A DNA stretch of 64,000 nucleotides. Origin: Raillietiella orientalis. Lineage: Eukaryota. The position numbers and the translations under genes are program-made. Under the pieces are notes generated by a model, which was not told the DNA's origin, made no database searches, and worked only from the letters and a program-made list of their open reading frames with translations. Below are positions 2,178-63,496 of this stretch, piece after piece. The stretch is from positions 310,001-374,000 of the forward strand of contig JAYWIR010000018.1 in assembly GCA_036172245.1 (NCBI GenBank). The letters are read 5' to 3'. Within the stretch, counting starts at the first letter, position 1; every line of letters starts with the position of its first letter.

Positions 2178-2210
2178 CACCACCACCACCACCACCACCA
2201 CCATCACCAT
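2178..2210. repeat. (CAC)n microsatellite
   Basis: caccaccaccacc...catcaccat is seen directly. Confidence 0.9.
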
Positions 2211-20700: not shown

Positions 20701-23700
20701 CCGCGGGTGGCGTCCCCGCTGAGCAGGGTGAGGAGGAGGCCCCTCCCTGCCCGTTCCGGGCGGAGCCACAGGAGCTGGTCTTCAGGGATTACAAGCCGGG
20801 ACAGGTTCTGCAGGTACCGGGACTTCTTGACTCCGCCTGCACGCTGGACCTGCTCCCTTTCCTTTCCCAGAAGCGACTGACACTGAGGAACGCGAACGGG
20901 CGCACGCGGAGGATAAAAGTGGGAGGCCCCCACACGCGGGCGTTTGCGCTGGTAGCCGAGGGCGGCGGCGCCATCGCAGGAATCGACAGGCAGTGCCGTC
21001 TTGCTCCCGGATTGAGTGCCTCTTTCCTCGTGATCTTCTCCCCCGACCACCAGGGCGACCACTGGGACTGCCTGGAAGTGTCGATGGCCAAAGGCAGCGC
21101 CCCCCCCTCGTTGCGGGTGCCGCTGCGAGCACTGAAGAGCGTTCCCCGCCTCACGCGTGAGTAGGGGAGGGGGGGGGGCGGATGCGGAGAGGGGCAGCTC
21201 CGAGCCAAGGCTCGGTTCTGCTCGGAGCTGTTCCCTGATGACTTCTCGGTTTCCTCAGTGCCCCGCTGCATCGACATGCAGCACTGCCTGCTGGGCAGCC
21301 GCAGGACCGCCACGGTCACCTTTCGCAACCAAGGTGAGACCGCAGGATTCACCCTTCTGTTTCTCGGGCAACCGAGCGCGGCGGAGGCGGAGGTAAGGGT
21401 GGTCGAGGGGAAGCGCGGCAGCATCCAAGACCCCCCTCGAGTCAAGGAGAGGCAGGGAAGGCGATCCCTACCTCGCCGTCTAGAGGCGAGCCTCCCCCTC
21501 TCCCTCCTCCTCCTCCCCCTGCCTTTCCCTGCCCTGCGATTTCCCGACCGGAAGGTCGCTCCCCGGGGGTCCCAAGAGGGCAGTCAGGAGCGCCTGCGGG
21601 GAAGCGCTCGGGAGCCACCCGAGACCCTTGCCAGAGCCACCCGCCTGACTCTCTGATCAGTCCACTCCGAAGCTTCAAGCCGGACGTTTCTGCCTGTGCC
21701 CGAGGTCGTTCGAATTGGCCGCGGGAGCCGAGGGCGAGCTGACTGTGGAATTCGACCCGGGGGAATCCCTCGAGGAGGACCACTTCGCAGAGGTGCTGGT
21801 ACTGTGCAGCAACCGCTGCACCGACCGGATGCTACTCAAGGCCAGGGTCGTCCGTGACATCAGGGACGTGCTGCGCGTGGGCGTGGATCAGGTAGGGGCA
21901 GCGGCAATTGGAGGCGAAAGGGTGGCAGCGGGAGCGGCAGGGGCGAGCAGCTTTTCTCCCTCCGGAACAGGTGCACGCCCTGCCCGGGACCCCTCCTTCC
22001 TTCCTTCTTTGCCCGCTTGGTCGTCATGCCTCCTCCCTCCCCCCCACCCTCCCGGCAAGCGCTCTGGCAGGGAGGCGCTCAAGGGATGCTGCGGTGGGAG
22101 GCTGGCAGAGGCAGGGAAAGTTCAGCGTCCCTCCCTCCCGTTCTTCCAGGCGGAGGAGAGCAGATGGGGCGCCGACGGGGATCTCCTAGGAGTAGAACAC
22201 CTGCTGGATCTCGGTGACGTCATCTCCGGTGTGCCGAGGACGGTTGATCTGATCCTGGAGAATTCAAGGCAGGTGGAGATGGGCGACGGGAAGCGGAGGA
22301 AGGGAAGGGAAGGCAGTAAGTGAGTGCTCGGCGGTAGAGGGGGATGAGATCGACGACGACGACGACGACGACGACGAGGAGGAGGAGGAGGAGGAGGAGG
22401 AAGAGGGAGGGGATCAGGAACTCTCCACCCCCACCCCTCCTGACGTCGATCCCTTGCAGCTCCCTCGACTTCCCTTGCTGCTGGGTGCTGCGCGCCTTCG
22501 TCCCAGCGGAAGGCGCCGCGCTGCCGAGGGCTACTCCTGTAGGACGCAGCCTTCCCGAGGTCACCGTGGAGGGCCTGGAGGATACGCAGCTCATCAAGGC
22601 ATTCTGCAGGCATCGGGTTCATCTCAGGCTCTCCTGGGCATCCCCCGGGAGCGCGCGCGCCGTCCTGGCTCTGGTGCTCGTCGACGTGCCCGCGGCAGCC
22701 TGTGGTGTGTCGAGGGCGCTCACCCCACGGGATCCGTTCCGGGAGGGCCGCCGGACTGCCGCTATCCCCCTGCCCCCTCCGGCGGCTCCTGTGGTGGTCG
22801 AGAAAAAGCGCGCGGGCGAGAAGGGCAGGAGGAGGAAGTCTGGACCCCGAGCTCGTAGGGACCGGCTCGGTAGGAAGAAAGAGGAGGAGGAGGACTCTGG
22901 AGTGCCCACCCTGCGGCGGCCGTCGATGGGGGAGGAGGAGGATGCGCCGAATCTCCCACCGCTGTTAGCGGACGTCTTCCCACTCGTCGCCAACGTCGTC
23001 GCCTACGAGTGCGTCCTCCGGTGGCGCGCCGCGCCGCTCCCGGTGTTCCTGCTGCCCGCCCGGCTGGACGCCGTGCCCGCCCCCGTGCAGGTGCGCAGCT
23101 TAGCGCCCTGCGAGCTCCCCTTTCGGTGGGACTGCGATCTCCCGGCCGCCCTCGACGTCAACCCCCGGGAAGGGACTCTCCGGGCGGGCGACGCCGCCTG
23201 GTTCTGGGTGCGGCTCTCCGACGACCCGCCGCTTCCCGCTGGTGGAGTCCACCGGTTTTCCCTGAAACTCTTCGTCGGAGCCGCGGAACTCCCACTGGAG
23301 CTGCAGGTCAGCTTCGCGGTCCCCGAAGGTCCGGTGGTCTCCGTCGATCCTCCGGCCCTCTCCTTCGGGATCGTGACGAAGGGCCTGCGGAGCAGCAGGG
23401 TTGCTGTTCTGACCAACGTCGACGACCGACTCACCCGCTGGCACGCGCGCCCGTCGGGGCATTTCCCCACGGATTCGTCAGCTGGAGGGAATCTGAAAGG
23501 GTGCCCCTTTCTGGTGGAACCCAGCGAGGGCGCCCTGGCTCCCGGAAAGGCTACGCGACTGACGGTGGCCTTCCTCGCACGGGTGAGTGACTGAATGCCT
23601 GCGGGGGTCGCCAATTGGCGTTCGTTCCAGGAAAGCGGGCCCGCGTCCGGGGCCATAGAGTTTTACGTGGAGGGCCGCGGGGAGCGTCCCGAGGAGTCCC

Positions 23701-26700
23701 TCCGGATCGGGGGCATCTCGAGGTCACCCACGGTGTCCCTGCTGGACGGCAAACTAGCGTTTCCCGCCCTCTACGTGGGCGAGAGGGAGTCCCGGATCGT
23801 CTTCCTGCGCAACGAGCTGCCCCTGGATGCCCCTTTCCTGTGGGAGCGGCCCGTCTTTCCTGAGGAGGAACTATCAAAAGCCCTCAAGATTCGCGTGAGC
23901 CCCGAGGAAGGAGTTGTAGTCGCCGGGCGCACGCAGAGCGTCGATGTGGAGGTGGAGGCAAGCGGCCAGGTTAGAGGGCGCGGACCCGAGGAAGGAGTTG
24001 GGGAGAACCTCTCCCGGCTCCTCTTCACCCCACCTCCTGCTTCAGTTGGAACATCTCGGGAGCTTTCTCTCCAGGTGGGCGACACTGTGGACGTGGTCCT
24101 GCCCTGCCGGGTGGACGGGAGACAGCGCCGCCTACTCCTTCACGTGATGGTCCAGGTCGCCAACCCCAACGTCAGCCTTCACCAGGTGGAGGACGGAGGG
24201 ACACCGTTAGTGCGGGGAGCGCTCGTTCCTGGAGCCGGCACGCCCCTTTTCGCCAATCGTCTTCCACGCTTTCTCTTCTCCAGGGACGGCTTCTGCAGTC
24301 TTCCGCGCCTGAGGGCCGGGGACGCAGAGGACCGCAGTCGCGGAGGTCGAGCGTCGCCATCCCATCCGTCCCCACGGGAGGTCTCTCTGCCCCCGATCTC
24401 TGACCTCTCCGCCTCTCTTGACCAGGAGGAGGAGGAAGAGAAGGATGGAGAGGACCACAACAGCCTGCAGGTGCAGGTGGATGACTGGGACGTCGGCGAC
24501 CTGCGTTGTTTCGACGGCCAGGTGGACTCTCTGGACTTCGGGAGAATTGACACCGGAAACGGTGAGATCCGGTAGAACGGCGGGGAGAGCGGAGCGAGGA
24601 AGAAGGGAGGGAGGATCTGGGCAATCGGGGATTCTACTCTCGCTCTTCCGGTATGAACTTTGGGGAAGGTGAGGGTCTATAGGGAGAGATGAATCGCGAC
24701 TCACGCCTCTGGCCGGTCTGCCACCGTTCCGACGCTCAGCTTCTCGTCCTTTCCTCCCCTCCACCCCCCTACTTCTCCTGTTCCTTCTCCAGTGCGCCAG
24801 CGGTCCTTCCTTCTCTGCAACGACTCCCCGACTCGGCTGCGCTTCCGAACGTCTATCCCTGGGATGCCCGCCGTTTCCCCTGGAGACGAAGGTCTGGAGG
24901 GGACCATGCGCGGTGAGCGAGACCTGAGAGCGAAGGGGAGCCGGGTCTCCCTGGACGCGTCGGTGCAAACCGTCCTCCTCGCCACCTCCCTTGCAGGTTT
25001 CCTGCCCGAGGGTCGCCTGGGCATCTGCCTGACGTGTACGCCCCCCGAGGGCGACCTCCCACCCTGCTCCCGCATCAGGGTCGACGTGCTCCTGCTGGCC
25101 GATACCTGGGGCGATTACGCCTACCGCGTAGACGTCCACGTGAGTGAACGCGGGGGAGAAGGGAAGACGACGGGTTGCCACCTCCACTGCTGCTGCCGAA
25201 GGTCTCCCACCTGGAGCAGCCCATTTCTGTGCCCGTGTACGCCGAGGTCGAGGGACTCCCCGTGCGACTGGCAACTTTTGACCACCTCCAAGAAGGAGGA
25301 AGGAGTGCCCACAGACTGAGGTCAGAAGGGACAGGCGTCCTTGCGAGAGAGCTTTCCTCCTGCGACGCCAGGTGGGAGACCTGCGCCTACGGGAGCAGAC
25401 CTCAGCGCCGCTCCCTGCTCTTCCGGAATCCGGGATGCTGCCCCGTCCAGCTGAACCTGGAGACCTACCTTCGAAGGGACCGAGCCCCCGAAGGAGGTCC
25501 TGGAGCGCCCTTTCGACTGGAGATCGTCTGCTTGGCCTCTGACTTCCCACTGGAGGTCCCGGCCGCGCTCCCAGAAGAGAAGGTGCGCGGGCGCGGAGAG
25601 AGGATGGGTTTAGAGGAGGGACGGAGGAGCCGGAAATCAGCCGGTGGAGATTTTTCCTAGAGAGGATCGTGTCATTTCCAGGAACCTCCTCCCGGGGGTG
25701 AATCCTCCTGGGAGAGCATCGCCCTGCGTGTCGCCCCTGACTACGGTCCGCCCGGACAAGGAGTCTTTCAGGTGAGGAGAGTCTGCGGGAAAGACCGAAA
25801 GGAGGGAGGACGGACGGGAAGGGACGCATGTGTTCTCCTCCTTCCGCGTTCCACAGCCCCCTTCCATCCCGACCTCCATTCCCTTTGCCAGGTGACGCCG
25901 CAGGTGATCGCCGTGGACGCCTACGGGAAGGCCAAGGTCAACCTCGATTTCCTGCCCCCGGACAGCGAGGAGGGCAACCCCTACGCCTCCCGTATTATCT
26001 CCGGGACTCTCGTCGCCTACGCGACTCTGCTGAACCCTAGCCAAAGGTGTCCCTCTTTCTCGCGACCGGTTGGGTTGGCTGGCTGGCGGGAGGGGACGGG
26101 GCTAGGAGCTGGGTGCAGGCAATGGTTTGCGGGGGCATTGCGTTGTCACGTAGTCTTCCATTTCATGGGACGAAGGCAGGGCGAGAGGTTTCACCGACCC
26201 GATGGCTACCGCCTGTCGCCCTACGAGGTGACCCTGGACGCCCCGGTTGAATACGCGGAGGTGACCGTCCTGGGTAACGGCTGGGAACACCCCTATGAGT
26301 TTGGGGCCACGGAGGTCCTGCAGAGCGGTGAGCGGGGCAGTAAGGCTGGAGGTTGCGTGCGGGCGCGCGGCACCCGTCCAAGGCACCGCCCTCCCACGGA
26401 GGCGAGGTTTTTGCGCTCCGGGGCCGGAGACCAGAGAACATTTTCTGATGGTCCTTGTCCTTTCAGGATCTCTGGAGGAAGAGCGTCCCCTGAGGCTGTT
26501 CAATGCCGGGGCTGCCGAGGTCAGCGTCCTCCTAGAAGCCGACGAGTTCTTCTCCCTCAGCAAGGGCAGCGCCCTCCTCCGACCCCAGAACTGCGTCCAG
26601 GTGAGGCACCTTCCCGCCAGCACGCCCGCCCATCACCGCCGCCCCTTTGCAGGTGCTGCTGCGCTGCCGAGTGGGCGCAGGAGACATCCGAGAGGCTGCG

Positions 26701-27451
26701 GCGGCGGCGGTGGAAGTACGATCTCCCGCAGTCCACTGTCCAGGACGACCGGCTCGTCGGGGCACTGCCCGCGTCGCCTTGGACAGGGAGCTGCGCATCC
26801 GCACGCAGAGCGGAGAGCAGGTGGGTGGGAACAGCTGATTTGTGGGAGGGGGGAAGGCATAGGGGTGGAGCCACCTTCTCCCGGGAACTCCCGTGAGGCA
26901 CAGGGGAGTGCCCGGGGAGCGATTCTCCTTCCACTCAACTGTTTCCAGGTGTTCCCCCTGCGCGTAGAGCTCGCCTTTCCCGAATGGAGCGTATCGCCCC
27001 AGCGGGTCGACTTCATCATCCTGACCGCCTCGGGCGTTCTAGAGCACGAGCAGGTTATCCGGCTGGCCAATCTGTCCAGGACGGCGATCGCCTGGGAATG
27101 TCTCGACCTGGAGCCTGACCCAGGAGAGAACGTGAGTCGACAGCGTGTTTCTCTCTCGACCTTACTCCTCCTCCTTTCTTCTCCGAGGCAGGGCGACCTG
27201 TTCGAGCTACTTCCAAGCCGGGGTGACCTGCCGGCGTCGTCCACGGCGCTACTCCGCTGCATCTTCCGGCCGAGGTGAGAGGCGTGCGCGCGCCGAGGGG
27301 TGGAGGACACCCGACGGCGGTGACGGCTTGCCGTAGGCGCTCTGGACCTGCGAAGAAGACCTGCGTGCTGAGGGAGAGGCACGGGTTGGCGGGAGATCTG
27401 CGGGTCCAGATGCTGGCGTGCGTGGAGAACCCTGTCGCTGAAGGAACGTGA
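17712..27451 (+). CDS. DLEC1: DLEC1/CFAP81-like ciliary central-apparatus protein (ASH/Ig-like repeats), many exons
   Basis: Exon 1 (17712-17903) MSDSFLHRPP..ASQDVTAVLQQLLRGVYA (cf. SQDISHLLTGVFRNLYS); exon from 19163 VRDTWERRQREVSTLEE; PQELVFRDYKPGQVLQ/KRLTLRN..GPHTRAFAL..LAPGLSASFLVIFSPDHQGDHWDCLEV..LRVPLRA; PRCIDMQHCLLG..FRNQG; later ASH-type motifs (PFLVEPSEGALAPG, FELLPSRGDL). Last exon 27337-27451. Not every internal junction was traced. Confidence 0.8.
18200..18700 (-). mobile_element. Decayed gypsy integrase C-terminal (GPY/F-region) relic in DLEC1 intron 1
   Basis: ALAAVFASKT (cf. PAALFAYRT), then KRKRARSAVRHVGTRVF...*WKG (cf. YDKRARxxxFxVGDRV...WKGPY). Confidence 0.33.
22350..22400. 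repeat. Compound (GAC)n(GAG)n microsatellite in a DLEC1 intron
   Basis: cgacgacgac...gaggaggagg is seen directly, just after a gtgag donor-like site at ~22320. Confidence 0.9.
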
Positions 27452-29149
27452 GCATGCTAATAAAATTTCGGACCGGAGGAGTCCGGGTCTTCACAGCATG
27501 GGCGAGGGTCACTCGGAGTCTTCAAGGAGGAGGAGGTGGAGGAAGGAAGGAAGTATGCGCCGCCGATCGCAGGAGACGCAGTGCTCGTCGTCTCCACGCG
27601 ACCTTCGAGGAAGAGGGGGAGGGGCGCTCCCGGAAACGGAAAGCGCTCACGCGCTTCCCGCTTCCGGGCATTCGGGTGATGAGGGTGAGCTGAGCGTGAG
27701 CTCAGCCACCGCCCCCCGCTGACCTTCCGACGATCCTCATCGTAGCCGGGGTCGAGATTCCCTCTTCGCGTTCCTTTTCTGCTAACCACGGAAGCCAAGG
27801 ATGGAAACTCCCCAGCCCGATTCATCTCGCGCCCGAGACGGCGTGTCCCGAGGGCAAGAAAGCAATGCTGTCCTCGAGCAACCATTGCACCATCCATGGG
27901 AAGAGTGGAGTGGGGGGGGGGGGGACGTCTGGCGGAACCCTCCAGGCGAAACCCTCGGAGCGCGGAAACGTGTGGGTGCAGAGTTCCGAAGGCAGGGGGA
28001 CGAGTGACTCCATGGGGGACGAGTCTCTTGATAGTGCCTTCCTTCGATCACAGGACGGCGGTCGCCACCTGCCGAGACTTGGCATTCGTGTCTCGGGCAG
28101 ACTCCAGGGGTGTAGCAAATCTACAGGTCTACGCTCATCCTCTTGTTGCGCGCGATATGGCGACTGTCCCCGATCGCCGAGCAGCTGTGGGCGAGACAGA
28201 AGTGGTAGTGCCAGGCAAACAGAGGCTGCCGCCGCAAAGAGCGGTCTTGTGCTCCGCTGTCCTCACCAGTGACTGTTTATCTACAAGATTTCTTACTTGT
28301 ACTATAAAGATTTATTCTGTTATTGCTATCAACACTAGTTCTACTATCTATTTCACGAACCGTGAACTTTTCCCTGAACAGAATCTCCGAGATGACCCTA
28401 TATTGTGCTACAGCATGACTGTTATCCTGCTTAATGATAACTGACCGCGATAGACTAGAGTGTTTTTTGCTGGATAATTTACCTTGGAATCCATCGATAG
28501 GGCAACTATTTATGTGCACACTTCATGGACTTCATAGGGTCCACAACTAATTGGAAAGATGCTTCATTTCACATACAAGAGCCTTTGAATACTAGAAAAC
28601 CCGCAATTCAAAGAAATAGAAACCGAAAAAGAAGAATTAACAAACACGCAAAAGAGAAATCTGCTGTTTTTGATCTGAGTGTTAAAATTACTCTAATGGA
28701 AGGCAATCCATTGGAAAAACTTAATGAATTATCAGTAAAGAAAAACAAAGCACCATTTGGCATGATATTTATCCATGCTGATAAAGTTAGCCGTCTTAAA
28801 TAACGGGACCGAGCCATAAGCAGGCAACTAAGTGGTTTTAAACCACCGGTACAAATACCGGGCGCCATTCTAGGAGTAGGAATTCTAGGAATATGCTATA
28901 ACTTTTAATGCTGGCTAATTTCTAAATTGAGAATGCCCTAGGATCTGAAGTCGCTTCAGCAGAGTCTCTTGATGGGAGGTTTCTTTCTTGACGATGAAGA
29001 AAAGCATCTTAGGTGCATAGCGTCTAGAGATAATACCAGGAAGCAAGGAACCGTGGAACGAAGAAATCGCATCAATTAGACATTGCCTCGAGGATAACAG
29101 TGCGGAGACCTATGAAAGCAGAAGACGCTGAAAAGTTAAGAGCTGGCAG

Positions 29150-40163: not shown

Positions 40164-43100
40164 TCACTGCTCCTTCTTCTCTTCGTCCTTGGCTTTCTTC
40201 AAGGAAGGAACAGCTGCGACCAGCCTGAGAGGAGGAAACGCATGTGTTACGGACACTAGGGTGGTGTCACTCCGTGGGATTCACCTCGTTTTCAGCTTGC
40301 CCACTTCCTCGATGCCACGGGTCCATAGGTGATGCACGTGCTGCTTGTTGTTATCGTACGCTTTCGGCAGCGTGAACAGGCCCACGTATGCTGGAAGAAA
40401 AGAGGAAGGAAGGAGGACAGTGAGGAGGAGGGGCCCAGGCGCACGCTTACTCAAAGTCAGCAAAGTCAGTCCGTTGAACCAGTGTCCTATGTACGTGAGG
40501 CACCAGAGCAGCAGCATCAACCGGAACGAGTCCCAGTAGTTGCGGAGTAGAAACAGGTGTGTCCCTGCGCTCAAGGCTAAGTTCACCTTTTCCAGACAGA
40601 AATTCTTGAAGTTGTCGGCAACCTGCTCCGAGATGGATGGCTTGCAATCCGAGAGGAAACTGCCGGCCAATGTCAGGTTTTCCGCCTCTCCTGTGCAAAC
40701 TTACTGTAGGGGATCCTCGTATTCGGTCTTCTTCTGCACGGAGTGCATGATGTAATGGTAAGCTCTGATGAGTGCCACCAGGGTCAACGCCAGGAGACAG
40801 GAGTACGCAAACACACTGATGACCGAGAAGAACATCAATGACAGCAGCAGCACCAGGCCTCCAACCAGCAGGGTGGCACTGGTCCGGGGACAGCGCCAGT
40901 AGATGAGATCTAAAACTGCGGAAGAGAGGGAGGGAGAAAATGAGGTCACTGTAAGAACGGCATGGGCGGCCAGACGAAGTTGCAGGAAAGAAAAGAAGTC
41001 GAAGAGTTCTCAACCTCAAGGGGAAGTTAACGCGTGACTCCTGAGAAGTTGCAGCCGGACCCATGTTGCAGGGGCGCAGCCCTCCAAGTTTGTTCCAGTT
41101 TTCTCGGGGTCCCCACCACTGGCTGCTTCCAGCAGGCAGAGAGACAAACGTTCACAACGCCACGCTTGAGAAACCCAATGCACCATGGGTGAAACAAGAA
41201 ACTGCGACTATCCCCCAGTGGCCGAAGCTTCGAATAATCGGAAGTCAACGACGCCGGGGCAGACTGCACTTCTGCTGTGGAATCCACTCGTTCGCGGCGC
41301 GTTCTCGAAACACTCACTACGGAAGTCGGGCAGAATACCCAACCTCGCCGCATGTGCCTACTGAGAGGTTCTCCACCAAAGAGGGAATCGGACGCGAGAT
41401 CCCGAAACGGAATGTCTACTAATCAGAACGGTCTAGCCAACTAGAGATCCGTACGAAAAGAACCGAGTTATTCCAAGCTCAAAGGTAACAGATAACCAAG
41501 AGGCATCCAGCTAATCAGCCACTTCCAGCATCTCGTCCCGAGGCGAACCAACTCAATCGAAACGAAGGCAGCAACTCGACCGAATTACGGCGCTCCGGAA
41601 ACAAATTAATCTGCCACCACTTAATCCATGTTTCCAGGAAATCTTGTTTCGGTTTCTCCCCCTTTTTTTTTTTTTTTTTTTAACTGACTGGAAACCTGCA
41701 AGCACAACACAATGAAAACTCACCCGAGAGGGGAAAAGACATCTGTCAAAGCGTCACGGAAAGCAAGCGAAGGAAAGTTCACTTTGCCACTTTTGCATGG
41801 CTCGTGTGGTTTGATTTCCAAAGCATCACATCCGCAGAGAAATCCGAAATACGCATATCGTGGACGCTCGCTCGCTCGCTCCGCACATGCGTGCCGAAAG
41901 CACAATGCAGCAGCTTTAGGCTTCAACCTCCAACGCCGCAAACGGGCGGGCTGCGCATGTCAAAAATCGTCCTCCGGGACCCCATGAAGGGCACTACTAT
42001 AAACACACCTACCTGCCTGCCTTCCAACATTATGGGTGTGATAGCATTAGTCATATTTTGGGTGACCCCAACGCACATTCGCTTCCGCAGCAAGTTCATC
42101 AGAATTTCACTAAATTGGGGACCAGAAACGCGTGAAAAAAGAGTCTTATTTATTTCCTCCTTTATTCTCCCCATGGTGCATGGGAAAAAAGAAAGAAAGA
42201 AAAAAACTGTTATACAGATACAGAAAACAGACAAACAAACAAACAAAACAAGAAAAACACAAAGGGAAAATGTATGAAAATGCGTAGTGCTAACTCAAAT
42301 GCTTCCCTCATAAACACAGGTGGTAGCACCCTAGCAGCACAACACAGTGTCCACTACGGTCAAGCTGGTTTAGTAAGTGCATCCAACTTCCAGAGGTTGG
42401 CATACTTATTCAGCATTCTCTTTTAGTTTGAGCAACGAGCAAATTTACCAATCAAAAAAAACCCTTCTACCCTAATTTTCAAGTGCATTAAAAACTGAGT
42501 CACACTGTTGCTTACCCACAGTATCATGAAGGCATGAAGACCTAGCTGTATGATTTTTATCAGGGAAGCATTTCTGAAAGCAAGTCACACCAGCAAGTTC
42601 AAGCACCGAGCTCGAAACTAGTGTCAGTGAAATGCTCCAACTTGTGAACTGAGAGCAACCAACATGAAATAGCAAAGAACTCTGCTTAAGACAAGTCATT
42701 TCCTCCTACTAGGTGGTGATAACTTTCCTGTTGAAATAAATTCATGGTCATTTCAAAGTATTTAAGAATTTGGGCAGCAGAAATTTCTGGCCACTGGAGT
42801 GAACCAAACCGTTTTTCTGATTGGGATAACATCCTGTTTTCAAACTGGGCTTTTGCTTACAAAAAGGCAAGTCATTTGTCTATGGCAATCTCTGATGGAA
42901 TCATGCTACCAAGAACATCAAATCAAAGCTTAACTTGAACAAGGACTAGAGTTTTTGATTTATGTTGTTTTTCGTTTGTCCTCACACTGTAATTACATCA
43001 CATGAAACAAAAGCACTACTACTGAAGCATAACTTAATAAAATAAATAATGAAATGCTCAAGGCCAGACCCAAACACATTCACTGCTGTTACCTGGTTGA

Positions 43101-52100: not shown

Positions 52101-55100
52101 ACGGCCTCATCCAGCACCAAAAGGACACAAACTTCGGATCTACCTGGGATTTACCGAAAGTTTCTATCGCGGCGGTGGCTCATGACGGAGGACCATTACC
52201 TGCATGACCACGACAGATCACTGAGAAGGAAGCGCTACCTCTCCCACTACCTGCTCCTGGACCGAGCTTCACGAGATCGCCGGTTGACAGCCGAGTCTAT
52301 AGCTTTCCGTTCTCTCTCTCTCCTCCATTCTCACTGCCACTATCGGCCTCGAGAAGCCTCCTAATTAGACCTGCTGGACTCCAGTCCCTTCTCGGTGTGA
52401 TGCTCGCTCGCTCTCATTTTCCTTGTTTTTTTTTTTTTGTTTTTCTCTCTCTCTCGGCATTGAATTCTTCCCGAGAACGGCACGCGCGCACGCGTCGGTT
52501 CTGAACACGAAGCAACTGAGAGAGAAAACGGTCATTCGTTTCCGCCCCCATCTGCTCGCTCCCCTCGTCGGGAAGGAGTCACTTACTTCTCGTCCTTCGA
52601 GACGATCCAAACTGGCTCCCTGGAAACACGGATGGGAAGATGCGATTGGATAACGATTCGAGGAGTCGCAAGCATTTAGCTAGGCGGGCGAGCACTTCTC
52701 GGAAACGCGACGAAGCAGAAGACGTCACGCACGTGGTACTGCAGCCGAAAGTTGTTCGTGCGCATCATGTGCGTTGCCCCGGACAACAGCATCAGCCTGC
52801 AACGCCGGATCCTCGCCAGAAGCAGCGCGTGTGAGAGAGGGATCCCGATCGCTCGCGGAAACCGATGCCGGGACGTCCTGAGCAGCCGCCGAGGGGGGAA
52901 GAGGAACCGCAGGCAGGACAGCGCTGCCGAACCGGACGCGTTTCGCGGTCAGCGCTCCCGGGCTGTCCTTGACTGGAAGGACAGCGAGGTGAGCACACGT
53001 GCACGTGAAGACAAGACAGAAAGCTACCTGCCAACAGGGGAGAATCGCGCGCGCCCCGGGGGAAACACGCACGTCCAGACCGGGAAAAGCTCAAGTTTCG
53101 AAGAACTTGCAGGGTCAAAAATCCCCGGTTTCTCGCAAAGGAATGAAAATTCAATTTTTGGAGAAGAGGGCCACATCGCAGTCCACCCCAGGAGATCGGT
53201 TCCTACCCTCATTTTACGTCCCCTTCCAGAGATAAGCACGGAAAACCCGATAAGCACGCAAAATGCTCCTTTGGATGGCGCAACTGGCGCCACGAACCGC
53301 CCTCGTGCATACTCCAATGACGGATCCCTTTCTTAGCATGACACCCACTTGCGAATTTTTTGTGGAAGTATCGGCTCCTCTCCTCCTCGCCACTTCCGGT
53401 CAAAATCCCGAAATGCCACAATCACCTGGGAGCCTTAGATATCAGTCTGGAAGGATATTCATCCAGCAAAACGAACCAACGGCAATGACGCTATTTTTAA
53501 TCTGTTTTTTCTTGCGCATGGCAATCGATGGAGCTCTGGTGTGGCCTCTCTCTCCCTCTCTTTCTCCAGTGCACACGCTAGCCTCGCATGCACGCGAATC
53601 CCGTTTTATCTCCCATGACTTATCCTGCCCGACAACGACCCCCCCTCCCCGCTCGACACGTTCAAAAATACAACAAAACAATGCTGCTGAGGTCACTGTA
53701 AATCATTTTTTTTTTTTCTTTCCCTCTTTCTTTGTTTCTGCCTTCTCCGCTGTTCTTCCCTTCCGTTACTTTCATCGCCTCTTCCGATGTCGCGACCTCG
53801 AAATATCCGATTCTTCCTACGATTTGAGCTGCGGCATTTCGTCAGTTCCAACTGTGGTCCCCCCCCCCTTCCCCCCCCCGCTGGGAGCATGTGGAAGCGG
53901 ATGCAAGGTCACGGAACCTGACTCGGGGAACTCGAATCGATAAGTTCACCGCGAATTTCGTTTTCTTTCAAACAGGTAAAAAATCGCGGCAGTGAAAAAA
54001 ACTTCCGGCAGCATCCAACACAAAATGAAGGAACGATACGTAAGCGACTTTTTTAAAAATCAGGGCTTCCGAAGCTTTCGCATGGAAGAAAAAAAAAAAG
54101 GAGGGATTACGACGAAGTAGGGGGATACAGGTAACAAGGAGGGAGTTTGCAGGGACCGATTAGCCGATGCTATCCACTGATAAAAATACTGGAAACTTTT
54201 AGTAGAGATGCCCTACGTAACGCAACTCTTCCAACAACGAACAGAAAAGAGGGGAGGGGGAAATGAGAATGACAATTCTTTCGTTACCTCAGCCTTTTCC
54301 GATGCATCACTCGTCTCGTGGGCATGATCTGGAGGAGTGTGTTGCTTCAGAGATGTATCCTCCGGACAGCCTTCCAGAGTGAACACACCATGCAAAGTAG
54401 GGCTTTCATTTGCTTTTACAGTGGCAGAAAGCTGAGACTCTTCAGCATAGATTGGACTGCGGATATCCTTAGAGAGGCAAGGCGATGTACCATAGATTAC
54501 CGACCGAACGTCCTCTTGGGAGCAATCGTCTTTATTTTCAGGTTCTTTATCTGTTTCATCAGCTTCAGTAAACTCAGTATTTGATTTGTCATTACGTGAA
54601 ATGGAAACGGATACACCCTCGTCAACATCTTGGTCACGATCGCAGGGTAGATCGTCGAATCGAACCTGTTTCTCTTCGGAGGAGCACGTGCCTTCAATCT
54701 GAGACGCAGAGGGTGTGGGAGCCGACGTCTGTGGCACGTCTTCGATGCCTGTGGTGGCTCCCGAATGCAAACCCGACGGCGCGCCTTGAACCGGGCTTTC
54801 CTGCAGAGCCACCGGCGATGACGCATCGCCTGCCTCCGCACTGCCCAGGTCGGACGGAGGGCTGAATTCTTTCAAATCTGCACGATCCTCACGTTTTCCC
54901 TTCTCCTGAAGTACATTTTCCAAAGCACGTTCGAGTTCGGCGTTTCCGGGTTTCCCAGGTTTTTCCGGAAGGATGCTGTCCGTGGCCAGGGGTTGCCCGG
55001 GTTCTCCCGTCTGCGGGCTCGTTTCACACACGGAAGCCTGCTCGCCGGAGACTTCCGAATTTTCGATTTTCACGAAGTCACTGGACGAATTCGAACTCGG

Positions 55101-55202
55101 GATGCTGCTCGTTTCCGCACCGCTGGTCACGGAAAAAAGATCGTCGTCTTTGCTCCTGTCGCCGTTGGGCGCTTCCGCGTTGTCTCGGAGGATCGTCGTC
55201 AT
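40164..55202 (-). CDS. Reticulon (RTN/Rtnl1-like), long isoform with an acidic disordered N-terminus and C-terminal RHD
   Basis: RHD exons 40915-40705 (VLDLIYWR..LLLSLMFFSVISVFAY..VQKK), 40659-40451 (LFL..DS..LLWCLTYIGHWFNGLTLL), 40390-40285 (LFTLPKAYDNNK) and 40224-40164 (..KKAKDEEKKEQ*). Upstream exons 55202-54288 (305 aa, phase 0) and 46536-46260 (phase 0 to 1) are frame-compatible with the RHD exon. The RHD call is firm; linking the upstream exons is inference. Confidence 0.85.
43093..43125 (-). CDS. 33-nt frame-preserving microexon of the reticulon gene
   Basis: ttttag|AATGCTGGTCCCTGCAGTTTCTGCCTCAACCAG|gtaac on -. Phase 1-1; gives ECWSLQFLPQP-V-LDLIYWR when joined to the RHD exon. Confidence 0.55.
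43503..43551. repeat. A-rich/poly(A) tract
   Basis: gagaagaaaagaaaagaaaaaa...aaaa is seen directly. Confidence 0.85.
47330..49250 (+). mobile_element. Decayed Ty3/gypsy pol relic (RT to integrase) in a reticulon intron
   Basis: ILVMVVKN..ISREDAFSV..TTLDQV..RIFP (RT N-terminus); PPRDLYAF..CYHR; VDGIIY; RECFIIW..KACDS (HHCC); HSDKGA..QQSCKNQG (cf. HSDQGxxF..xCKxxGI). Confidence 0.55.
49975..50003 (+). mobile_element. Primer-binding-site-like sequence (complement of a tRNA 3' end including CCA and T-arm)
   Basis: TGGCGTCCCCACGTGGGGATTCGAACCCG. Its reverse complement, CGGGTTCGAATCCCCACGTGGGGACGCCA, resembles the tRNA-Lys(CTT) 3' end; compare the Lys PBS TGGCGCCCAACGTGGGGC. Confidence 0.55.
50200..51750 (+). 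mobile_element. Decayed Ty3/gypsy RT end-RNase H-integrase relic
   Basis: LEWKNYC; LPVILKDF/NEKPMVVE..NIGGCFW* (cf. PVLxxPDFxKPFVVETDASxxGIGAVLxQ); PAE*R..ECL; QKPQWL..GLLPRWII; HCQQ; WER; IPVDAL; VPRATD; FWTTVGIRQ. Confidence 0.5.
52650..53320 (-). mobile_element. Decayed gypsy integrase relic
   Basis: VRGASCAIQR; FCLVFT..AVLPVKD..TAKR; VPASVSASDRDPSLT (cf. GVPESIVSDRDPRFT); LSAA/YH. Confidence 0.45.
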
Positions 55203-55875
55203 TTTCTCTCCACTGCCGGATCGGATTTGCCTGACACGGGAAAGGGCTGCGCCCGAAGGGGGTGACCGTCGTCGTCGCCTGAGCTTCCGAACGCAAACAA
55301 CAACAACAACGACAACACTCGGTACGGAAACAGCTGATCTGCCTGGCCAACGACGCACGAAACGCACCTACGAAAGAACGTTGCTGTGTGCTTACCCGTT
55401 CTTGGCGGCGGTAGGCAGCAGCAGCAGCAGCAGCCTCTTCTGCGCACAAGCAGTCCCGCGGATTGCCAAATCGGTCGTTCCGTGCCGGTTGGCGTGTGCA
55501 TCCGGTGTTACCATTTCCAGCATGGCCTCCCGCTGGAAACCGACGGCCGACTCCCGCGAGGACGCCCTGCCCCATGTAACTCCAATATAAGTATTATACA
55601 CAATCGGTCGCTCGCGGAAAAGAGTAGACGGAGATGGAATACAGTAATCACGAAATCATACCTTCCGTGATCCGTGTGCTCAGCCTCCCCAGTCTTACGT
55701 GTACGAACACAAGGGTTCGAAGACTGTATGTAAAATTGCAACTTGCGCAAGGCTATGCCCGAATAATAAGTTGCCCGAATGTAAATACCCACAGCTGAAG
55801 TAAACTTATTCTTAGGAATCGGAAAATGATTTGCGAGTCTTACGTATCCGTTTACGTGCATCGTTTCATACAAAA
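55203..55875. promoter_or_regulatory. Probable bidirectional promoter between the reticulon long isoform (-) and SPTLC2 (+)
   Basis: Divergent start codons at 55202 and 55876; CpG-containing spacer with short CAA/CAG repeats. Inferred from geometry. Confidence 0.5.
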
Positions 55876-57769
55876 ATGTTCGCTGATTTATTGTTTCTCA
55901 AGAGAATGAAAACAAATTTGTGCCGTTTCCATGAGAGTTTGTTTCAGAAGTCCGGGAGTTGCAGTCCACAGCATTCGGTCAAACAGAAACATGTTGAATC
56001 TTATGAAGAACCATCACTTTGGGTGGCATTCTTTACATATGTTGGTTATGGTGTTCTAGTCTTAGTTGGCTACATTTGGGAGTGCTTGAGAACTCTCCAT
56101 CTAGTATCTTGCCCATGTAATTCAGAAAAAAATCGTGAGGTCTGTTGAATATTCTTTCATACAATAAATGAATTCGCTGATTTCCAATCTCAGGGTTATA
56201 CACCCTTGTATAGTGGTTTCGAAAATTTCTATACTCAGTGGATATATCGAAGAGTGCAGGATTGTTGGAATCGTCCAATTTGTTCTGTTCCTGGTGGTGA
56301 AGTAGTGCTGCAAGACAGGATATCCCCTGATAATGGATGGACCCTATTTCCAACAGGGACCACAACTAAGTGCATCAATATGGCTTCTTACAATTATCTC
56401 AGTTTTGCTGAGCGTGAAGGCAGCTGTGCAGATAGTGTACAGGAATCCATTGCTCAGTATGGCATTCATGTAGGAAGTAGTCATCAGGAATTTGGTGAGC
56501 ATCATGAGGTTGCCTGATTTTGTGATTCGGCAGTGGAATAGGATGCCACAGCATTCATCAACAACTGGAGAAAAAATGGGCTGATTTCTTAGGTGTTGAG
56601 GATGCAATGATTTTTGGTATGGGATTTGCCACCAATTCCATGAATATGCCCATTCTGATGGGACCTGGCTCCCTTATCCTTAGTGATCAACAAAACCATG
56701 CATCTTTGATATTGGGTGCTCGACTTTCAGGTGCTTCCATCCAGGTTTTCCGTCATAATGGTGGGTGGAGCACATTAGGAAAACTGTAACTCTCTGTAGA
56801 CATGGCAAATCTGGAAAAAAAACTGAGAGAGGCGGTGGTACGAGGTCAACCACGCACAAGACGTCCATGGAAAAAGATTCTCATTGTTGTAGAAGGTGTG
56901 TACAGCATGGAAGGATCAGTGTGTCCTTTACCCAAATTGCTTGAACTTAAGAAGAAATACAAGGTGCGTTTTCTGTGAGGAAATCATTTCTAATGAATGC
57001 ATCAAGGCATATGTGTACCTGGATGAAGCTCACAGCATAGGCGCTATGGGTTCCACTGGTCGGGGAATTACAGAATATTGGGGATGTAATCCACGAGATA
57101 TAGATGTACTCATGGGTACATTTACCAAGAGCTTTGCTTCAGCAGGAGGCTACATTGCTGGGTCTAAGGTAAGGATTGAATGGAATCTGTTTTATTGTTT
57201 CTAGTCCTTGATTCAATATGTACGGACCCATTCACACAGTTCTTGCTATGCTACAAGCGTCAGTCCTCCAATAGCACAGCAAGCATTAGCTGCTGTCATT
57301 GCCATTGACAGTACAGAAGATGGGAAGAAGCGTTTGAAGCAGCTACATGACAATGTAACTTACTTTCGTACTAGATTGCAGAAGATGGGCTTTATTTTGT
57401 ACGGACACCCAGATTCTCCTGTTGTGCCCATTCTAATTTATATGCCAGCAAAGCTTGCGTATGCTATCTTTTCTTTGTTGTCTGTACTAATGTTTGCACA
57501 GAGCATTTGTCAGGATTTTGACACAATTAGGTATTGCCACAGTGTCTGTGGGCTTTCCTGCCACTTCCATCCTGGCTGGAAGAGCTAGATTGTGTTTATC
57601 GAGTGGGCACTCTTACCAGCAACTGGATCAGGTACTTGAAGCTTCAAATTATCTCAAGCTGACCAAACATTCTTAGGCCCTAGAAGCTCTGGACCACATT
57701 GGAGATCTTATTCAAATCAAGTACTCAGCGAAAAATCGAAAAAGCAAAAATAATGTTCACCGGAAATAA
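55876..57769 (+). CDS. SPTLC2: Serine palmitoyltransferase catalytic subunit LCB2 (SPTLC2/3; lace), multi-exon
   Basis: [123 protein letters not shown] (PLP lysine); VGFPAT; last exon 57677-57769 [19 protein letters not shown]. The start could instead be the ATG at ~55906. Confidence 0.96.
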
Positions 57770-57850
57770 TGAACTTTTGTGTGAAATTCTTGTTGGGGAT
57801 AAGAAAGGGGATAGTACCGAAAGGCATGCATTGCTTCATTTTTTTTTTAG

Positions 57851-60800
57851 GGTGTGGATGTTGGTATTCCCTCTTTACTGCAGAAGCTGTGTGACCAGCT
57901 GGTTGGCACTGGATTGCCACAAAGCAGGCAAAAACAGCTTCGCTCTAAAGCATTCGAGCTGCTATTTAGTCATGTGCGCATTTCAGGTATGCAAGCTTTG
58001 TTTTCCTAAATGAACCTGGTTTGCAGAAAATAGCAAGGATACATTGCCAGTATCCTGTCAACTGTTAGGCTGGATCTTAAAACTCCACATGCATGGATAT
58101 CAAATAGAAGCTCAGAAACTACAGACCTGTGTGAGCCACATGAGTCTCAGTGATGACTTGGAGCCAGTCTTGGTTCTTCTTCTGACCCTTGCTCACAAGA
58201 AGTTTATCGATCAAACTACTTGCACTCCAGACAAATATCAACAAACATTGTTTCAAAACAGCAAACAGACAGTCATTCAGTTTCCCATCTTCCCATCAAT
58301 TATCTTTGATCTCAGTTTGTCTCATCCAGAGCTCCAAATTAATCCCAGAGCAACTTTACCTGTTCTCTCACATCCCCAGTTTTTTGTGTCTTTTCAAAAG
58401 AGTCAGTTATTCTTTGCTGAAGATAATCCTTCCTTGTTTAGGCCACATGAGATTCCAGCTAGAAGCATTCCTTTTGGACATATAAAACAGCCCTGGGATT
58501 TTCCTCAGGATCCCATTAACAGTTTGACATCTCCATATTGCTCAGAAGTTGGAGAGAAAGTGGTGCACTGCTTATGGGCACTTGCCTCTTCAGTGCTCAC
58601 TCCTGAAAAAAGCCTTCCGCCACTCCACCTCATTTCTGAGAAGCATATGTTGCAGAGCATTCAGCATGCTTTGCTAGGTGTTCCATCAGTCTGCTTCTTT
58701 ATTAACAAGGTTGGTTCTTCTGCTTCTTGTGTATTAATACTTGAACCGATCAAGTCAGGAGAGCTGCAAAGTTACCATCGAATTACCCTCTCTTGTATTA
58801 GTCCAGAAGCAATAAAAGAACTGCTGAATGATGTTGCTACCGTTGGTAATGCGTATTTGCGCATTCATGCCAGTTTCAACAGTGTTGCATTTTTGAACTT
58901 AACCAGACAAGCATTTTGTCAAGCTTTGCGTGTAGTGATGGATGTTTATCATCATTTTCTCATCTTTTCCACCCAAGTGCCATCAGTGCTATGTTGGCCG
59001 AGTATCCTTGCCCCCATGAAGAACTTGTTGCATCCTTTGGCACGTTTATGTCGTAACAGCACACTTGTATCAAATAGCATTCAATTAATCAACCTATTAT
59101 ATGAGTGGGCTCAAGATATGGTGGATGAACCCTTGCAATGTTTGGCTCGGTTCCTCTTAACTGCTACCCTACAACCATATTTCAGGTTTGTGCTCTTTGT
59201 GCTGGAATGTAAATTTTGTAGATTCGTGGAAAAATGGATTTTCAAAGGTATCCTTGAAGATCCCCATCAAGAATTTGGGATTAAACAGTGTCAAGAGCAG
59301 CTGTCTGCTAGAGACGAAACATATTGGACAGCCTCTTTCCTGTTGGAGGAGCAGTTTGAGAAGGAGGCTCCAAACTTTTTAAAACCTCTTCTGACTGCTG
59401 TTCTCAACTGTGGAAAAAACATAAATTTTCTGCGGTGCTGTGACCTTGAGGTACTAATATTTCCTTACAGTGATCGTGATCGTTATGAGCTTTAGCATCC
59501 ATTGTGCCAAACAGATGGAATTAAACATCCTTCCTTAATTTTCCCACTTGAATTTGGGCAGTGCACTCAGTTGCAGATGAATACCACGCAATACTTCCAA
59601 AATATGAAAGCTGTTGCCTTCAAGAAACTGCTAAAATTAGGAGAAATACTAAAGGAAGAACGAGAGAAAGAGGAACAGAGATGCAAATCATTGTATTTAT
59701 GCCAGCAGGAGACACTCAGACGGCTAACAGGTGAACTGGATGACTTACATACATTGGATAATAAGAAAGAACAGAAAAGAAAAAGGAAGAAATGCTACAA
59801 AAGCAGAAAACCTATCAAAGACTGTGTAACCAGTTAAATGCGAGCAGCAAGAATGAATTGAGGATTAATGAAGTCTTCAAAACACTACGTGATTACAAAG
59901 CAAGAATGGAAAACGAGAAAATTCAGAAACAATTAGCAGCACAGGAGACACAAGATTTAATAACCAAGTAGGGCATGGGGAATGTATGTTTTCCACTAGC
60001 ATTTATTCAGATACAAATTAAAATTACATTATGACCAATTATTAATGGCAAGTGATGACACTCAGAAGAAAACGGAATGGTTACTGCAGCGTGCATGTTT
60101 ACATGAGAAAAGAGCCATGCTTTTACAAGAAGATATCCATAAGCTTCAAATGATCACAAATCCCATTATTGTAAATGAAAAAGAGAATGTCACCATGGAC
60201 ACTGAAGTTTATGTTGAGAGTTCTTTGAATGTGGTAGAAGTCCTTGAACAAGAAGAAACTTTTAGTTCCACTAAGGCTGCAGATGCAAAGCTAGAAGCAC
60301 AGATTTCAAATATTGATGCATCACCAAAACAAGTGAATTCAGCCAAAGGATTACAAAAAATAAATGATTCTTGCCAGAAAAATAATGTTCAGCTTGCTTG
60401 GCCAGTGGCAGAATGTGATGCACAATTGATCATGGAATCAGGTTTCCTAGGTGAGAAAGCAAGTTCTTAAATCAGATTTTTTTTTTTTTTTTGCTTTGTT
60501 TTTAGAACATCCCCTGTTCAAAGACAAAAGTAAAGGTCATTTCAACAATCTCCAAAAGCCACTATGCCCTCTGGATCCATGGTTAGGGAAGACACTGAGC
60601 ATTCCACTCATCAATCAGTAGGAGTTCCTTGTATTTAACATTTTTCTTTATGTCAGTCTTTAGGTTGGAAATGGCTAACTGTGGTGCTCTAGCTTATTTA
60701 TGGAAAGATTGCCAGCTCTTAAAGCAATTTCAAATGCTGCACAATTTTCTGCTACTTCAAGATGGCCCATTTGCTCATATGTTGATTGTTAGTTTGTTCT

Positions 60801-61731
60801 CTCAGGTAACATAAACAAGATCCTTCCTCTGAGTTAATCCCAAGTAGTTTCATCAAATACAATCCCCCAATGAACTACTCTACCCACCTATGCTAGCAGC
60901 TGTCTTGGATAAGGCATTGGATGCCTCCATTCACAAGCAAAGCCAGTACTGTCAACTGCTAGGCTTTCGGCTACGTTCTCAATCCCCAGAGCCAAACTGT
61001 ACCCAAATGTCCTTGTTAAATTATTTAGAACTAGTCTACATGCCACCTTGGCCAGTGAATTTAGTCTTGATTTCAGAAACAATAGAACAGTACAGCAAAG
61101 TTTTTACTTTTTTACTACAATTACACTATAGTTTGTTTTCCCTACAGCAAGCAGCATGCAAATTACAGCGACAACATGCAGCTAATATCATGTTGAAGCG
61201 TTTATCTCTATTTCGCTGGCATATGAATCATTTTGTAAGCACATTACTAAATTACACCCTGCAGCAAGTTGTGGAAGTCAAATGGGTGCACTTTCTTCAT
61301 CAGCTAACTGATCAAGTCCACAGTATAGATGATCTCAAGAAAGCTCATTCTATACACATTGCATCGATCAAAAAAGGGTAAACAAACAATATAGACAGCA
61401 TTCATAATTTTTTCTAGGTGCCTGCTTCATGACACAGCATCAGTGATCTCCAGACTTATCCTGTCTGCTCTTGAAAACATCCACAGCTTTTGTAATTACA
61501 TCTGTGGTACCTCAGAGTGGCCATTTGCATCCACTCACTACTCACATTTGCAGCAGTTGTATGTGACTTTTCATAAATACGTAGATTATATTTATAAAGG
61601 TTAGTATTAAAAATTTTCAATTTGCATTTTTTGCCTTAGTTTTAAGCAAGTTAAGTCATGATTTTGGTGAATTACTTGTGCAGTTGGATTTCAATGGGTA
61701 CTATTCATCATGCAGCATGCTTAATGATTAA
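57851..61731 (+). CDS. TUBGCP6: Gamma-tubulin complex component 6, multi-exon; start codon unresolved
   Basis: Exon 57851-57986 GVDVGIPSLLQKLCDQL..LRSKAFELLF (cf. GCP6 N-terminus ITQLFDDLCEAL..LKKVAYNALF) is in phase, via the 40-nt intron 57987-58026, with ..HALLGVPSVCF..; QPYF/FVEKWIFKGILEDPHQEF; SARDETYWT..VLNCGKNINFLRCC; coiled-coil insert; HNFLLLQDGPFA; LELVYMPPWPVNLVL..YSKVFTFLLQL; C-terminal LLVQLDFNGYY. Confidence 0.9.
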
Positions 61732-61826
61732 TGTGCCAGAGTGGAGAAAATTGATGTTCAAAGTACCTGAAGTTTATAATTATCTAATAGTCTACTGTGT
61801 ATATTAGCAATTGCCCTATTCCATGC

Positions 61827-61894
61827 AATAAATTCTTTAAGCTTGTTTGCTGTTTATCAATTACTTGTAATGCTCCTTGTATAAATCATTTATT
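61827..61894. terminator. Convergent poly(A) signals of GCP6 (+, 61827-61832) and NAA38 (-, 61889-61894)
   Basis: AATAAA on + and TTTATT in the ~305 nt between the two stop codons. Confidence 0.5.
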
Positions 61895-62036: not shown

Positions 62037-63496
62037 CTACACAGTGGCAGTGATCCCATTTTCAAAATCATTACTGGTGAAGTTAGGATCACGTAAACTG
62101 ATGGACTGAACATGGATGCCAGGAATCATGACAAGCCCCAAAAACCTTGGTTCTTCTGAAATAATCATTCACCTGAATTCTGAATAAGCCACCCACCATT
62201 AATTGAGACAATTTCGGTGCAGCTCCCTAATATGATATTTCTGTCTCTGTCAGTGCACAAAAAGAAGCCTATAAGAATTCGCCCATCACTCATTTCAATC
62301 TTCATGCTTTGATTCAGCCAGCTCATTAGTTTTTGCACACCTTCACTTCTGACATGACTTTGATTCTGAAATGCATAAACTTCACTAAACATATTCTGAT
62401 ATGACTATGTAAAACAAAAACTGGTTGTTAAATATGATTGAAATGGGCTTTACATAAATGTCAGTGATAGTTAAAATCACTGCTGAAAGATGCTAAACAC
62501 ACAAATCAGCAAAAAACAGATTCTTCAGGAAATGAATGTGCGAACAAACGTGAAAAAACTGTATGTTTAACAAATTTCCATCTACGTGTCTTCCATGCTT
62601 GTATTATGTATGTTATTGGTTATCTACTTTGGAGTATAGGTACACTTTAGTCATCTTTCCAGCTCTGTCACATGCCATGTGTAAGCACAATTCATTTCTC
62701 TGGCAAGCACATTTTTTCCTTACAAGCTGAAAGCTTCATTTTTGCTTTTGCTTCCAAACTTTTAAATTGGGATGCGCATTTTGTCTGCTTGTGGTATTCA
62801 ATTCTTGGCTTTACCAAGACAATTTCCAGGTGCAGAAGATCTTGTAGAAAGTACATGAAGTCACTTTATTTTGTCCTTCATCTAACAGGCAAACCTTGCT
62901 ACACTGCAAATGGTAATGCATGCTGCTAAATATTACCATTTCTGTGAACCACCTTAATACATTTCAGAAGCAATGGAAGTCCTCACTAATATAAACGTCA
63001 ATGTACTGGGTACATGCTCTTGTTTCGCACTTAATTTGAATCAACACACAGCACGGTTACTGTGATTCAGGCATGTTGAAATTACTTTTCAAAATGATAA
63101 ACCAGACAGAATTCTAAGCTCTAAACAAAATTGTTTATGCATGCAAAATTTTTGCAAAATATCTTTGCGGAATGGCACCAGCACTCCTATCAATATTTAA
63201 CGAATGGACACTACATTGAGCAATTACTCAGAGAAGTACTTTCAGGATTCTTTTAGTACTAACGACGTGCTGCCACCTGCAATGAACAGAATCCCCCCTT
63301 TTAATGTAAAACGTGATTGTTTGCCCCCCCCCAAAAAAGCTAATGTAATCCACATTTTTGTAGCACTGAGGATGCTTACTTTTTCCTCCTCTTCTTCTTC
63401 ATCGTCAATTTTGGCAAGGGGAGCTAAAATATCAGATGGTCGCTTCAGGAGTTCAGTCAAGGTATCCACAGATTCCGAACACGAATTGCAGTCCAT
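62037..63496 (-). CDS. NAA38: NatC auxiliary subunit NAA38 (LSMD1/Mak31, Sm-like)
   Basis: Exon 62365-62197 KLMSWLNQSMKIEMSDGRILIGFFLCTDRDRNIILGSCTE; 41-nt intron; exon 62155-62037 EEPRFLGLVMIPGIHVQSI. Probable first exon 63496-63380 (MDCNSC..DDEEEEEEK|gtaagc, phase 0). Confidence 0.9.

Follow-up and report, generated by a model that had tools for sequence, protein, structure and literature searches.

The DNA analyzed here is a stretch of 64,000 nucleotides from contig JAYWIR010000018.1 (positions 310,001 to 374,000, forward strand), called the window below. It is animal DNA with very small introns, and it carries the genes SPTLC2 and GCP6 in close succession on the same strand. The first coding exon of GCP6 is homologous to the N-termini of GCP6 proteins, opens in phase 0 directly behind an exceptional splice acceptor, and contains no in-frame ATG. 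We propose that GCP6 would be separated from SPTLC2 by a spliced leader (SL) trans-spliced to position 57851, and that its initiator methionine would come from an AUG at the 3' end of that leader. Trans-splicing at 57851 appears likely to us from the DNA, if by no means certain, and the two genes are probably co-transcribed. For the whole chain of co-transcription, trans-splicing and an AUG-ending leader, we consider the chances about even.

Protein comparisons identify both genes. The SPTLC2 gene model that we built (Table 1) is covered from residue 15 to residue 495 by trematode serine palmitoyltransferase proteins (tblastn), and the Pfam family Aminotran_1_2 is present on four of its five scanned stop-free segments (56526-57585), no Pfam family being matched on the fifth (56149-56514). 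For GCP6, Pfam detects GCP_N_terminal at 58029-59492 (E 2.1e-23) and GCP_C_terminal at 60848-61378 (E 1.9e-28). Nine of the ten best GCP6-like clusters bear the name GCP6; the one left over is called just 'hypothetical protein'. An exhaustive search of a representative protein library with GCP6 exon 2 returned 176 matches, the best at 30% identity; no close relative is found in that library, with no match at E 1e-30 or better, and a word-based search retrieved no longer GCP6 relatives.

The junction between the two genes is compact. The SPTLC2 stop codon overlaps an ATG as TAATG, and a TGA follows the TAA directly. The same pentamer occurs a second time at 61729-61733 (+), where the GCP6 stop also stands before TG; it is thus not unique here and arises at this locus without a restart role. 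Neither AATAAA nor ATTAAA is present between 57700 and 57900, where the only variants are AATGAA (57768) and AAGAAA (57801). Unlike SPTLC2, both GCP6 and a reticulon gene elsewhere in the window have a canonical AATAAA behind the stop codon, at a distance of approximately 96 nt and 170 nt, respectively. The acceptor at 57850 stands out from its surroundings: the 20 nt before its AG are 85% pyrimidine with a T-run of 10, whereas pyrimidines make up 45-70%, and T-runs do not exceed 4, in the eight cis acceptors compared (seven from SPTLC2 and that of GCP6 intron 1). Local cis introns manage without a strong tract, and an acceptor that lacks a nearby 5' splice site would need one such as T10. Candidate cis donors are nonetheless present at 57814 and 57632. 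In the frame of GCP6 exon 1, the codon just before the exon is the acceptor's TAG (57848-57850), and the exon reads open from its first base. Of the five ATGs in 57600-57990 (57753, 57769, 57826, 57858 and 57972), none shares the frame of 57851. An AUG at the junction would make the ATG at 57858 harmless, but ribosomes scanning towards any start further on would be intercepted by it.

By homology, the frame that opens at 57851 is that of GCP6. A profile made from 20 GCP6 orthologues, using the first 70 residues of each, was compared with the 1781 six-frame stop-free segments of the window, and its sole match is the 57851 frame (E 2.8e-6), the next best segment reaching 0.27. The orthologues were hand-picked by eye among 36 listed proteins longer than 700 aa; the other 16, in which the helix is absent from the first residues, were dropped. 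The exon reads GVDVGIPSLLQKLCDQLVGTGLPQSRQKQLRSKAFELLFSHVRIS from its opening, and profile position 6 pairs with exon residue 4, so that the consensus N-terminus of GCP6 starts no more than about two residues from the splice junction. A start at codon 67 (58089) would delete both conserved helices. Searches with the exon-1 peptide gave no GCP6 match among PDB sequences and nothing in Pfam at E up to 10. The Pfam family GCP6_N, which begins at residue 28-32 in two orthologues, does not match the window protein, and when JGI metagenome contigs were scanned for an exact copy of 24 nt from the start of exon 1, there were 0 matches. An ordinary ATG is present at the conserved N-terminus of four other genes of the window, namely ACLY (~35246, -), ORMDL (~17085, -), an LSM/NAA38-like gene (62392, -) and Dishevelled (~13148, +), which argues that the missing ATG is specific to GCP6 and reflects no general problem of sequence quality. 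A previous reading of the window from its letters only (the sequence-only reading) had drawn the same anatomy. All its coordinates are correct when checked on the sequence, and its claims that the exon lacks an in-frame AUG behind an in-frame TAG, that the 81-nt gap contains no AATAAA and that the conserved N-terminal helices of GCP6 are encoded in this exon are borne out by the ATG inventory, the signal scan and the profile match.

We read this arrangement as a two-gene operon-like unit whose transcription would begin in the GC-rich DNA upstream of SPTLC2. Cleavage and polyadenylation of the SPTLC2 message would take place within the 81-nt spacer, probably via the AATGAA that overlaps its stop codon, and GCP6 would be released by SL trans-splicing at 57851. 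The 3'-terminal AUG of the leader, joined in phase 0, would then supply the initiator methionine to give M-GVDVGIPSLLQKLCDQL..., with (M)GVDVGIPSLLQK as the predicted N-terminus. A polycistronic, trans-spliced origin of the GCP6 message is probable: a promoter does not fit into 81 nt, and no cis partner of the acceptor is evident beyond the candidate donors at 57814 and 57632. The leader is the proposed source of the methionine because GCP6 exon 1 begins at codon position 1 without an AUG of its own.

Flatworms, nematodes, tunicates, chaetognaths and rotifers all make routine use of SL-resolved operons, and the SL2-type operons of C. elegans combine intercistronic regions of ~100 nt with a U-rich element. 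With such operons routine in several phyla and SL-donated AUGs documented in Schistosoma, the sequence-only reading went too far in its view that any such route to GCP6 would be unusual among nuclear genes of animals. Cheng, Cohen, Ndegwa and Davis are said to have described, in 2006, the 3'-terminal AUG of the Schistosoma mansoni SL as an initiator methionine. This role of the S. mansoni SL is cited in passages of PMC9851317, PMC12582326 and PMC5832876. According to the first of these passages, the SL AUG is in frame for 28% of trans-spliced transcripts in S. mansoni and over 40 cDNAs require it; according to the second, every reported flatworm SL ends in ATG. For Macrostomum, excerpts give an SL end of ...GCATG and, for trans-spliced genes, a repeat-adjusted distance with its main peak at ~100 bp (PMC8629364), and the start ATG is described as probably contained in the SL (genome paper, PMC10468722, in part).

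The GCP6 exon resembles the recipients of the Schistosoma SL AUG in that it opens at its acceptor in frame, has no AUG of its own and places the conserved N-terminus at the junction. As in the operons of Macrostomum lignano and parasitic flatworms, the two genes form a same-strand pair; their spacing of 81 nt lies well within the limit of ≤300 bp used for parasitic flatworm operon candidates (PMC12582326, in the part describing them) and near the ~100-bp peak of Macrostomum (PMC8629364, likewise in part), and the downstream gene is evolutionarily conserved and of housekeeping type. With the nematode SL2-type operons, which a passage of PMC12582326 mentions as a comparison, the locus shares the short spacer and the U-rich tract right before the proposed trans-splice site; unlike in that system, where SLs give no AUG, a leader would here have to provide one, and SPTLC2 lacks a canonical AAUAAA. 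Unlike in Schistosoma, trans-splicing at 57851 is read here from the DNA alone. On the same footing, the resemblance to a flatworm operon with an SL-dependent downstream start, which comprises the spacing, phase 0, the lack of an ATG and the conserved N-terminus at the junction, does not establish the locus as one. A full-text search, whose scope did not include the operon-pair supplement of PMC12582326, returned no publication joining serine palmitoyltransferase, the gamma-tubulin complex and a spliced leader. PMC3101182 contains no example of an SL-donated methionine, and the chaetognath and glass-sponge genome papers offer no fit to the features of the window and no AUG-ending SL.

The sequence-only reading had itself suggested a polycistronic or trans-spliced transcript, and this part stands as the best reading of the anatomy. 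Its list of three solutions, all of them frame-correct, was incomplete, as it omits an AUG-ending SL joining in phase 0; we think that this leader is the most economical solution and that none of the three is the most likely one. The ATG at 57769 would be followed by 15 codons and a 37-nt cis intron (57814-57850), either on a termination-reinitiation dicistron or on a message with its 5' end in the last SPTLC2 exon; as one form of the latter, an SL at the phase-0 acceptor 57676 would create a 31-codon upstream open reading frame (ORF) ending at TAATG. The resulting protein would show GIGVDVGIPSLLQK in its N-terminal region and carry an extension of 15 residues, which are hydrophobic and have no counterpart in the orthologue profile. 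The ATG has an A at -3, the intron falls within the local range of 36-54 nt (one ACLY intron has ~37 nt) and GTAC-type donors are also used at 57632 and 59451, although this donor has a C at +5, where seven of nine verified donors examined have a G, and the T10 tract goes far beyond the need of any cis acceptor here. Overlapping UAAUG sites serve termination-reinitiation in influenza B M1/BM2 and with the calicivirus TURBS, and the locus has the same overlapping stop and start. Unlike the viral cases, it has no upstream UGGGA (the viral reinitiation motif; count 0 in 57600-57770), its upstream ORF has 529 codons, after which eukaryotic reinitiation is unexpected without a special element, and the 37-nt intron would still have to be removed. 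Taken together, a start at 57769 seems improbable to us. A monocistronic GCP6 message is somewhat easier to accept, but still unlikely: a promoter and a short ATG exon inside or upstream of SPTLC2 would have to be cis-spliced in phase 0 to 57851. Long introns do occur in the window (~524 nt in ACLY, ~650 nt in Dishevelled), and there are several upstream phase-0 donors, such as those at 56140 and 57632. SPTLC2, however, is compact (1.9 kb, introns of 36-54 nt) and leaves no free space for a promoter or exon, the acceptor at 57850 is atypical of local cis introns, and with the conserved N-terminus starting at the junction an extra exon would add little beyond the methionine.

Initiation at the GUG of position 57854 or at a different near-cognate codon would take place on an mRNA starting at or just before 57851, perhaps with an AUG-less SL; in our view it has only a slim chance, slightly below that of the start at 57769. 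GUG starts are inefficient in general, and most ribosomes scanning past this one would be taken by the out-of-frame AUG 4 nt downstream (57858) into a dead end of 56 codons. The claims made for the GUG do hold, as it has a G at both -3 and +4 and fits the N-termini of orthologues as well as a methionine at the junction would, and a passage of PMC9851317 reports that nematodes and Oikopleura have near-cognate starts within or adjacent to their SLs. Splicing from the SPTLC2 donor at 57632 to 57851 would yield an SPTLC2-GCP6 fusion, which is in frame, a phase match expected by chance in one case out of three. As a productive protein this chimera is very improbable, as the conserved C-terminal exon of SPTLC2 would be lost, the ends of both proteins destroyed and a membrane enzyme joined to a component of the gamma-tubulin ring; for flatworms, one passage of PMC12582326 describes operon-resolving acceptors as very rarely used in cis, such use being likely deleterious. 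Equally little is to be expected from an assembly error near 57851-57866 that masks an in-frame ATG. A 1-nt insertion or 2-nt deletion before 57866 would indeed bring the ATG at 57858 into frame, but no homopolymer longer than 2 occurs in 57858-57866, the sole long homopolymer (T10) precedes the AG and cannot shift the frame, and the window has no N and its other examined genes read through cleanly.

Several observations weigh against the proposed leader-dependent start. The chain needs an AUG-ending SL, which in print is a flatworm feature, and it fails if the organism is not a flatworm; to our knowledge, the SLs of Ciona, Hydra, Oikopleura and rotifers do not end in AUG. Several chaetognath SL forms are given without an AUG end in part of PMC2481426, and in part of Table 1 of PMC7986045 the C. 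elegans leaders SL1 and SL2 terminate with GAG or AAG and not with AUG. No SL RNA gene is found in the 64-kb window by Rfam (0 matches) or by a pattern scan for ATG/GT...Sm-site and the Macrostomum SL tail, which gave two chance matches only; a tRNA search of the window returned 0 genes. The cis intron behind the GTAC-type donor at 57814, as noted above, fits the local range. The position of the methionine in orthologues is a soft argument owing to the hand-picked set, and in several of the 16 dropped orthologues the helix lies 20-60 residues in. We dropped, for related reasons, the argument that the 15-residue extension predicted for a start at 57769 is at odds with how long orthologue N-termini are, namely the hand-picked set and the longer N-termini of some omitted orthologues.

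The proteins of the window give mixed signals on the taxon. A hint of flatworms comes solely from the word-based SPTLC2 search, which may be taken as a lead: seven of its 26 candidates are significant, all three that carry an organism name are trematodes, and two further matches are 72-84% identical to the trematode ones. An exact run of 14 residues is common to the window SPTLC2 and the retrieved matches. The remaining signals belong with the objections above. Identity between the window SPTLC2 and the proteins retrieved reaches only 52-59%, a level that is ordinary between phyla. The window ACLY lies outside a 66-tip clade of all named arthropods in a tree of 75 tips and 1016 columns (weak support, 0.59; no spiralian included); the ACLY word search, with 4437 significant matches that are mostly arthropods at ~70% identity, is uninformative on the taxon. 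In a GCP6 tree (38 tips, 516 columns), the window protein stands beside an unrelated long-branch protein to which it is 24-27% identical, a pairing that looks like long-branch attraction. The DIX region of the window Dishevelled looks well conserved, and such conservation is atypical of fast-evolving parasitic flatworms. If the organism is not a flatworm, the locus might represent a second animal lineage with a start-donating SL, or translation might restart at TAATG to make GCP6 on a dicistronic mRNA that has been spliced; we give this pair of outcomes little credence. The spliced dicistron, if true, would represent, in a cellular gene with an intron, the equivalent of the stop-start coupling of viruses, and no new mechanism is involved unless the organism lies outside the flatworms.

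If a leader does provide the GCP6 start, a conserved gene would be untranslatable from its own genomic sequence, its start codon residing in an SL RNA gene. Automatic annotation would cut such a GCP6 at Met67, dropping the N-terminal helices (which we take to be the part that binds MZT1), or would fuse GCP6 to SPTLC2. Flagging phase-0 acceptors that open conserved N-termini without an ATG could serve as a DNA-only detection of SL-AUG use in unannotated genomes.

Table 1. Coordinates of the SPTLC2-GCP6 locus and of other features of the window
Feature	Position	Strand	Description
SPTLC2 coding region	55876..57769	+	ATG 55876, TAA 57767-57769; 8 exons, 529 codons; built gene model
SPTLC2 introns (n=7)		+	54, 47, 39, 43, 36, 43 and 45 nt; gene model
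Last SPTLC2 intron	57632..57676	+	45 nt; donor cag/GTACTT, phase 0, after 1494 coding nt; donor of the putative chimera
TAATG	57767..57771	+	SPTLC2 TAA (57767-57769) overlapping ATG (57769-57771)
AATGAA	57768..57773	+	only near-canonical poly(A)-signal variant for SPTLC2 before the acceptor; use presumed
Spacer, SPTLC2 stop to GCP6 acceptor	57770..57850	+	81 nt; would be 3' untranslated region and intercistronic region (outron end)
Candidate cis intron behind ATG 57769	57814..57850	+	37 nt; donor ata/GTACCG
T10-AG acceptor, proposed trans-splice site	57839..57850	+	ten T 57839-57848, AG 57849-57850
GCP6 exon 1, first coding	57851..57986	+	136 nt; codon position 1 at start; no in-frame ATG; encodes GVDVGIPSLLQKLCDQLVG...LRSKAFELLFSHVRIS
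GTG, second codon of GCP6 exon 1	57854..57856	+	G at -3 and +4; candidate GUG start
Out-of-frame ATG	57858..57860	+	7 nt into GCP6 exon 1; opens 56-codon dead-end frame across intron 1
GCP6 intron 1	57987..58026	+	40 nt; cag/GTATGC ... TTTGCAG
GCP6 exon 2	58027..59450	+	1.4 kb; carries GRIP1 (GCP_N_terminal) domain; earliest in-frame ATG of GCP6 at codon 67, 58089
GCP6 C-terminal part	60848..61731	+	GCP_C_terminal domain; end ...DFNGYYSSCSMLND; stop 61729-61731
Canonical AATAAA 3' of GCP6 stop	61827..61832	+	~96 nt after the stop
F-box/LRR-type repeat protein	3-716	+	cut by window start
Dishevelled	13148-16130	+	DIX start, DEP domain, one ~650-nt intron
O-methyltransferase-like piece	28501-28800	+	weak, E 1.7e-4, below Pfam cut-off
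Reticulon gene	40284-41009	-	

Acceptor-like sites are also seen near the starts of three other coding regions. In the LSM/NAA38-like gene (-), the stretch 62390-62407 reads TAG/TCA TAT CAG AAT ATG, with a pyrimidine-rich AG and the ATG 12 nt further on, in frame. The 5' region of SPTLC2 (+, 55806-55878) has a pyrimidine-rich TTATTCTTAG with its boundary at 55815, followed by 20 open codons to the ATG at 55876. Approximately 95 nt upstream of the ACLY ATG, an acceptor-like TTTTGTTTCAG would give a 9-codon upstream frame with an early stop. These sites are compatible with an AUG-ending leader; they were picked by eye, and their numbers are too small to test. Upstream of SPTLC2 and divergent from it lies an open frame of 384 codons (54216-55367, -), with its start around ...EKMTTILRDNAEAPNGDRSK and no Pfam match. 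The interval of ~500 nt between this frame and SPTLC2 is GC-rich and could be a bidirectional promoter.

G+C content varies from 0.36 to 0.67 in 2-kb windows, with GC-rich blocks at ~2000-10000 and 18000-28000 in which all six frames are open for hundreds of codons; SPTLC2, GCP6 and ACLY lie at ~0.40-0.45. A DLEC1/HYDIN-like gene (+), with Ig-domain matches at 20607-24572, falls within the block of 0.67 G+C. No tandem repeats are present in the window. ORMDL proteins are regulators of serine palmitoyltransferase, and an ORMDL gene lies at 16900-17109 (-), ~39 kb from SPTLC2, which may be a coincidence. The ACLY search also brought up a group of proteins of ~1000-1040 residues without ATP-grasp domains, which have a lower identity (53-59%) than normal animal ACLY but score much higher, with 184-217 bits as against ~145 bits.

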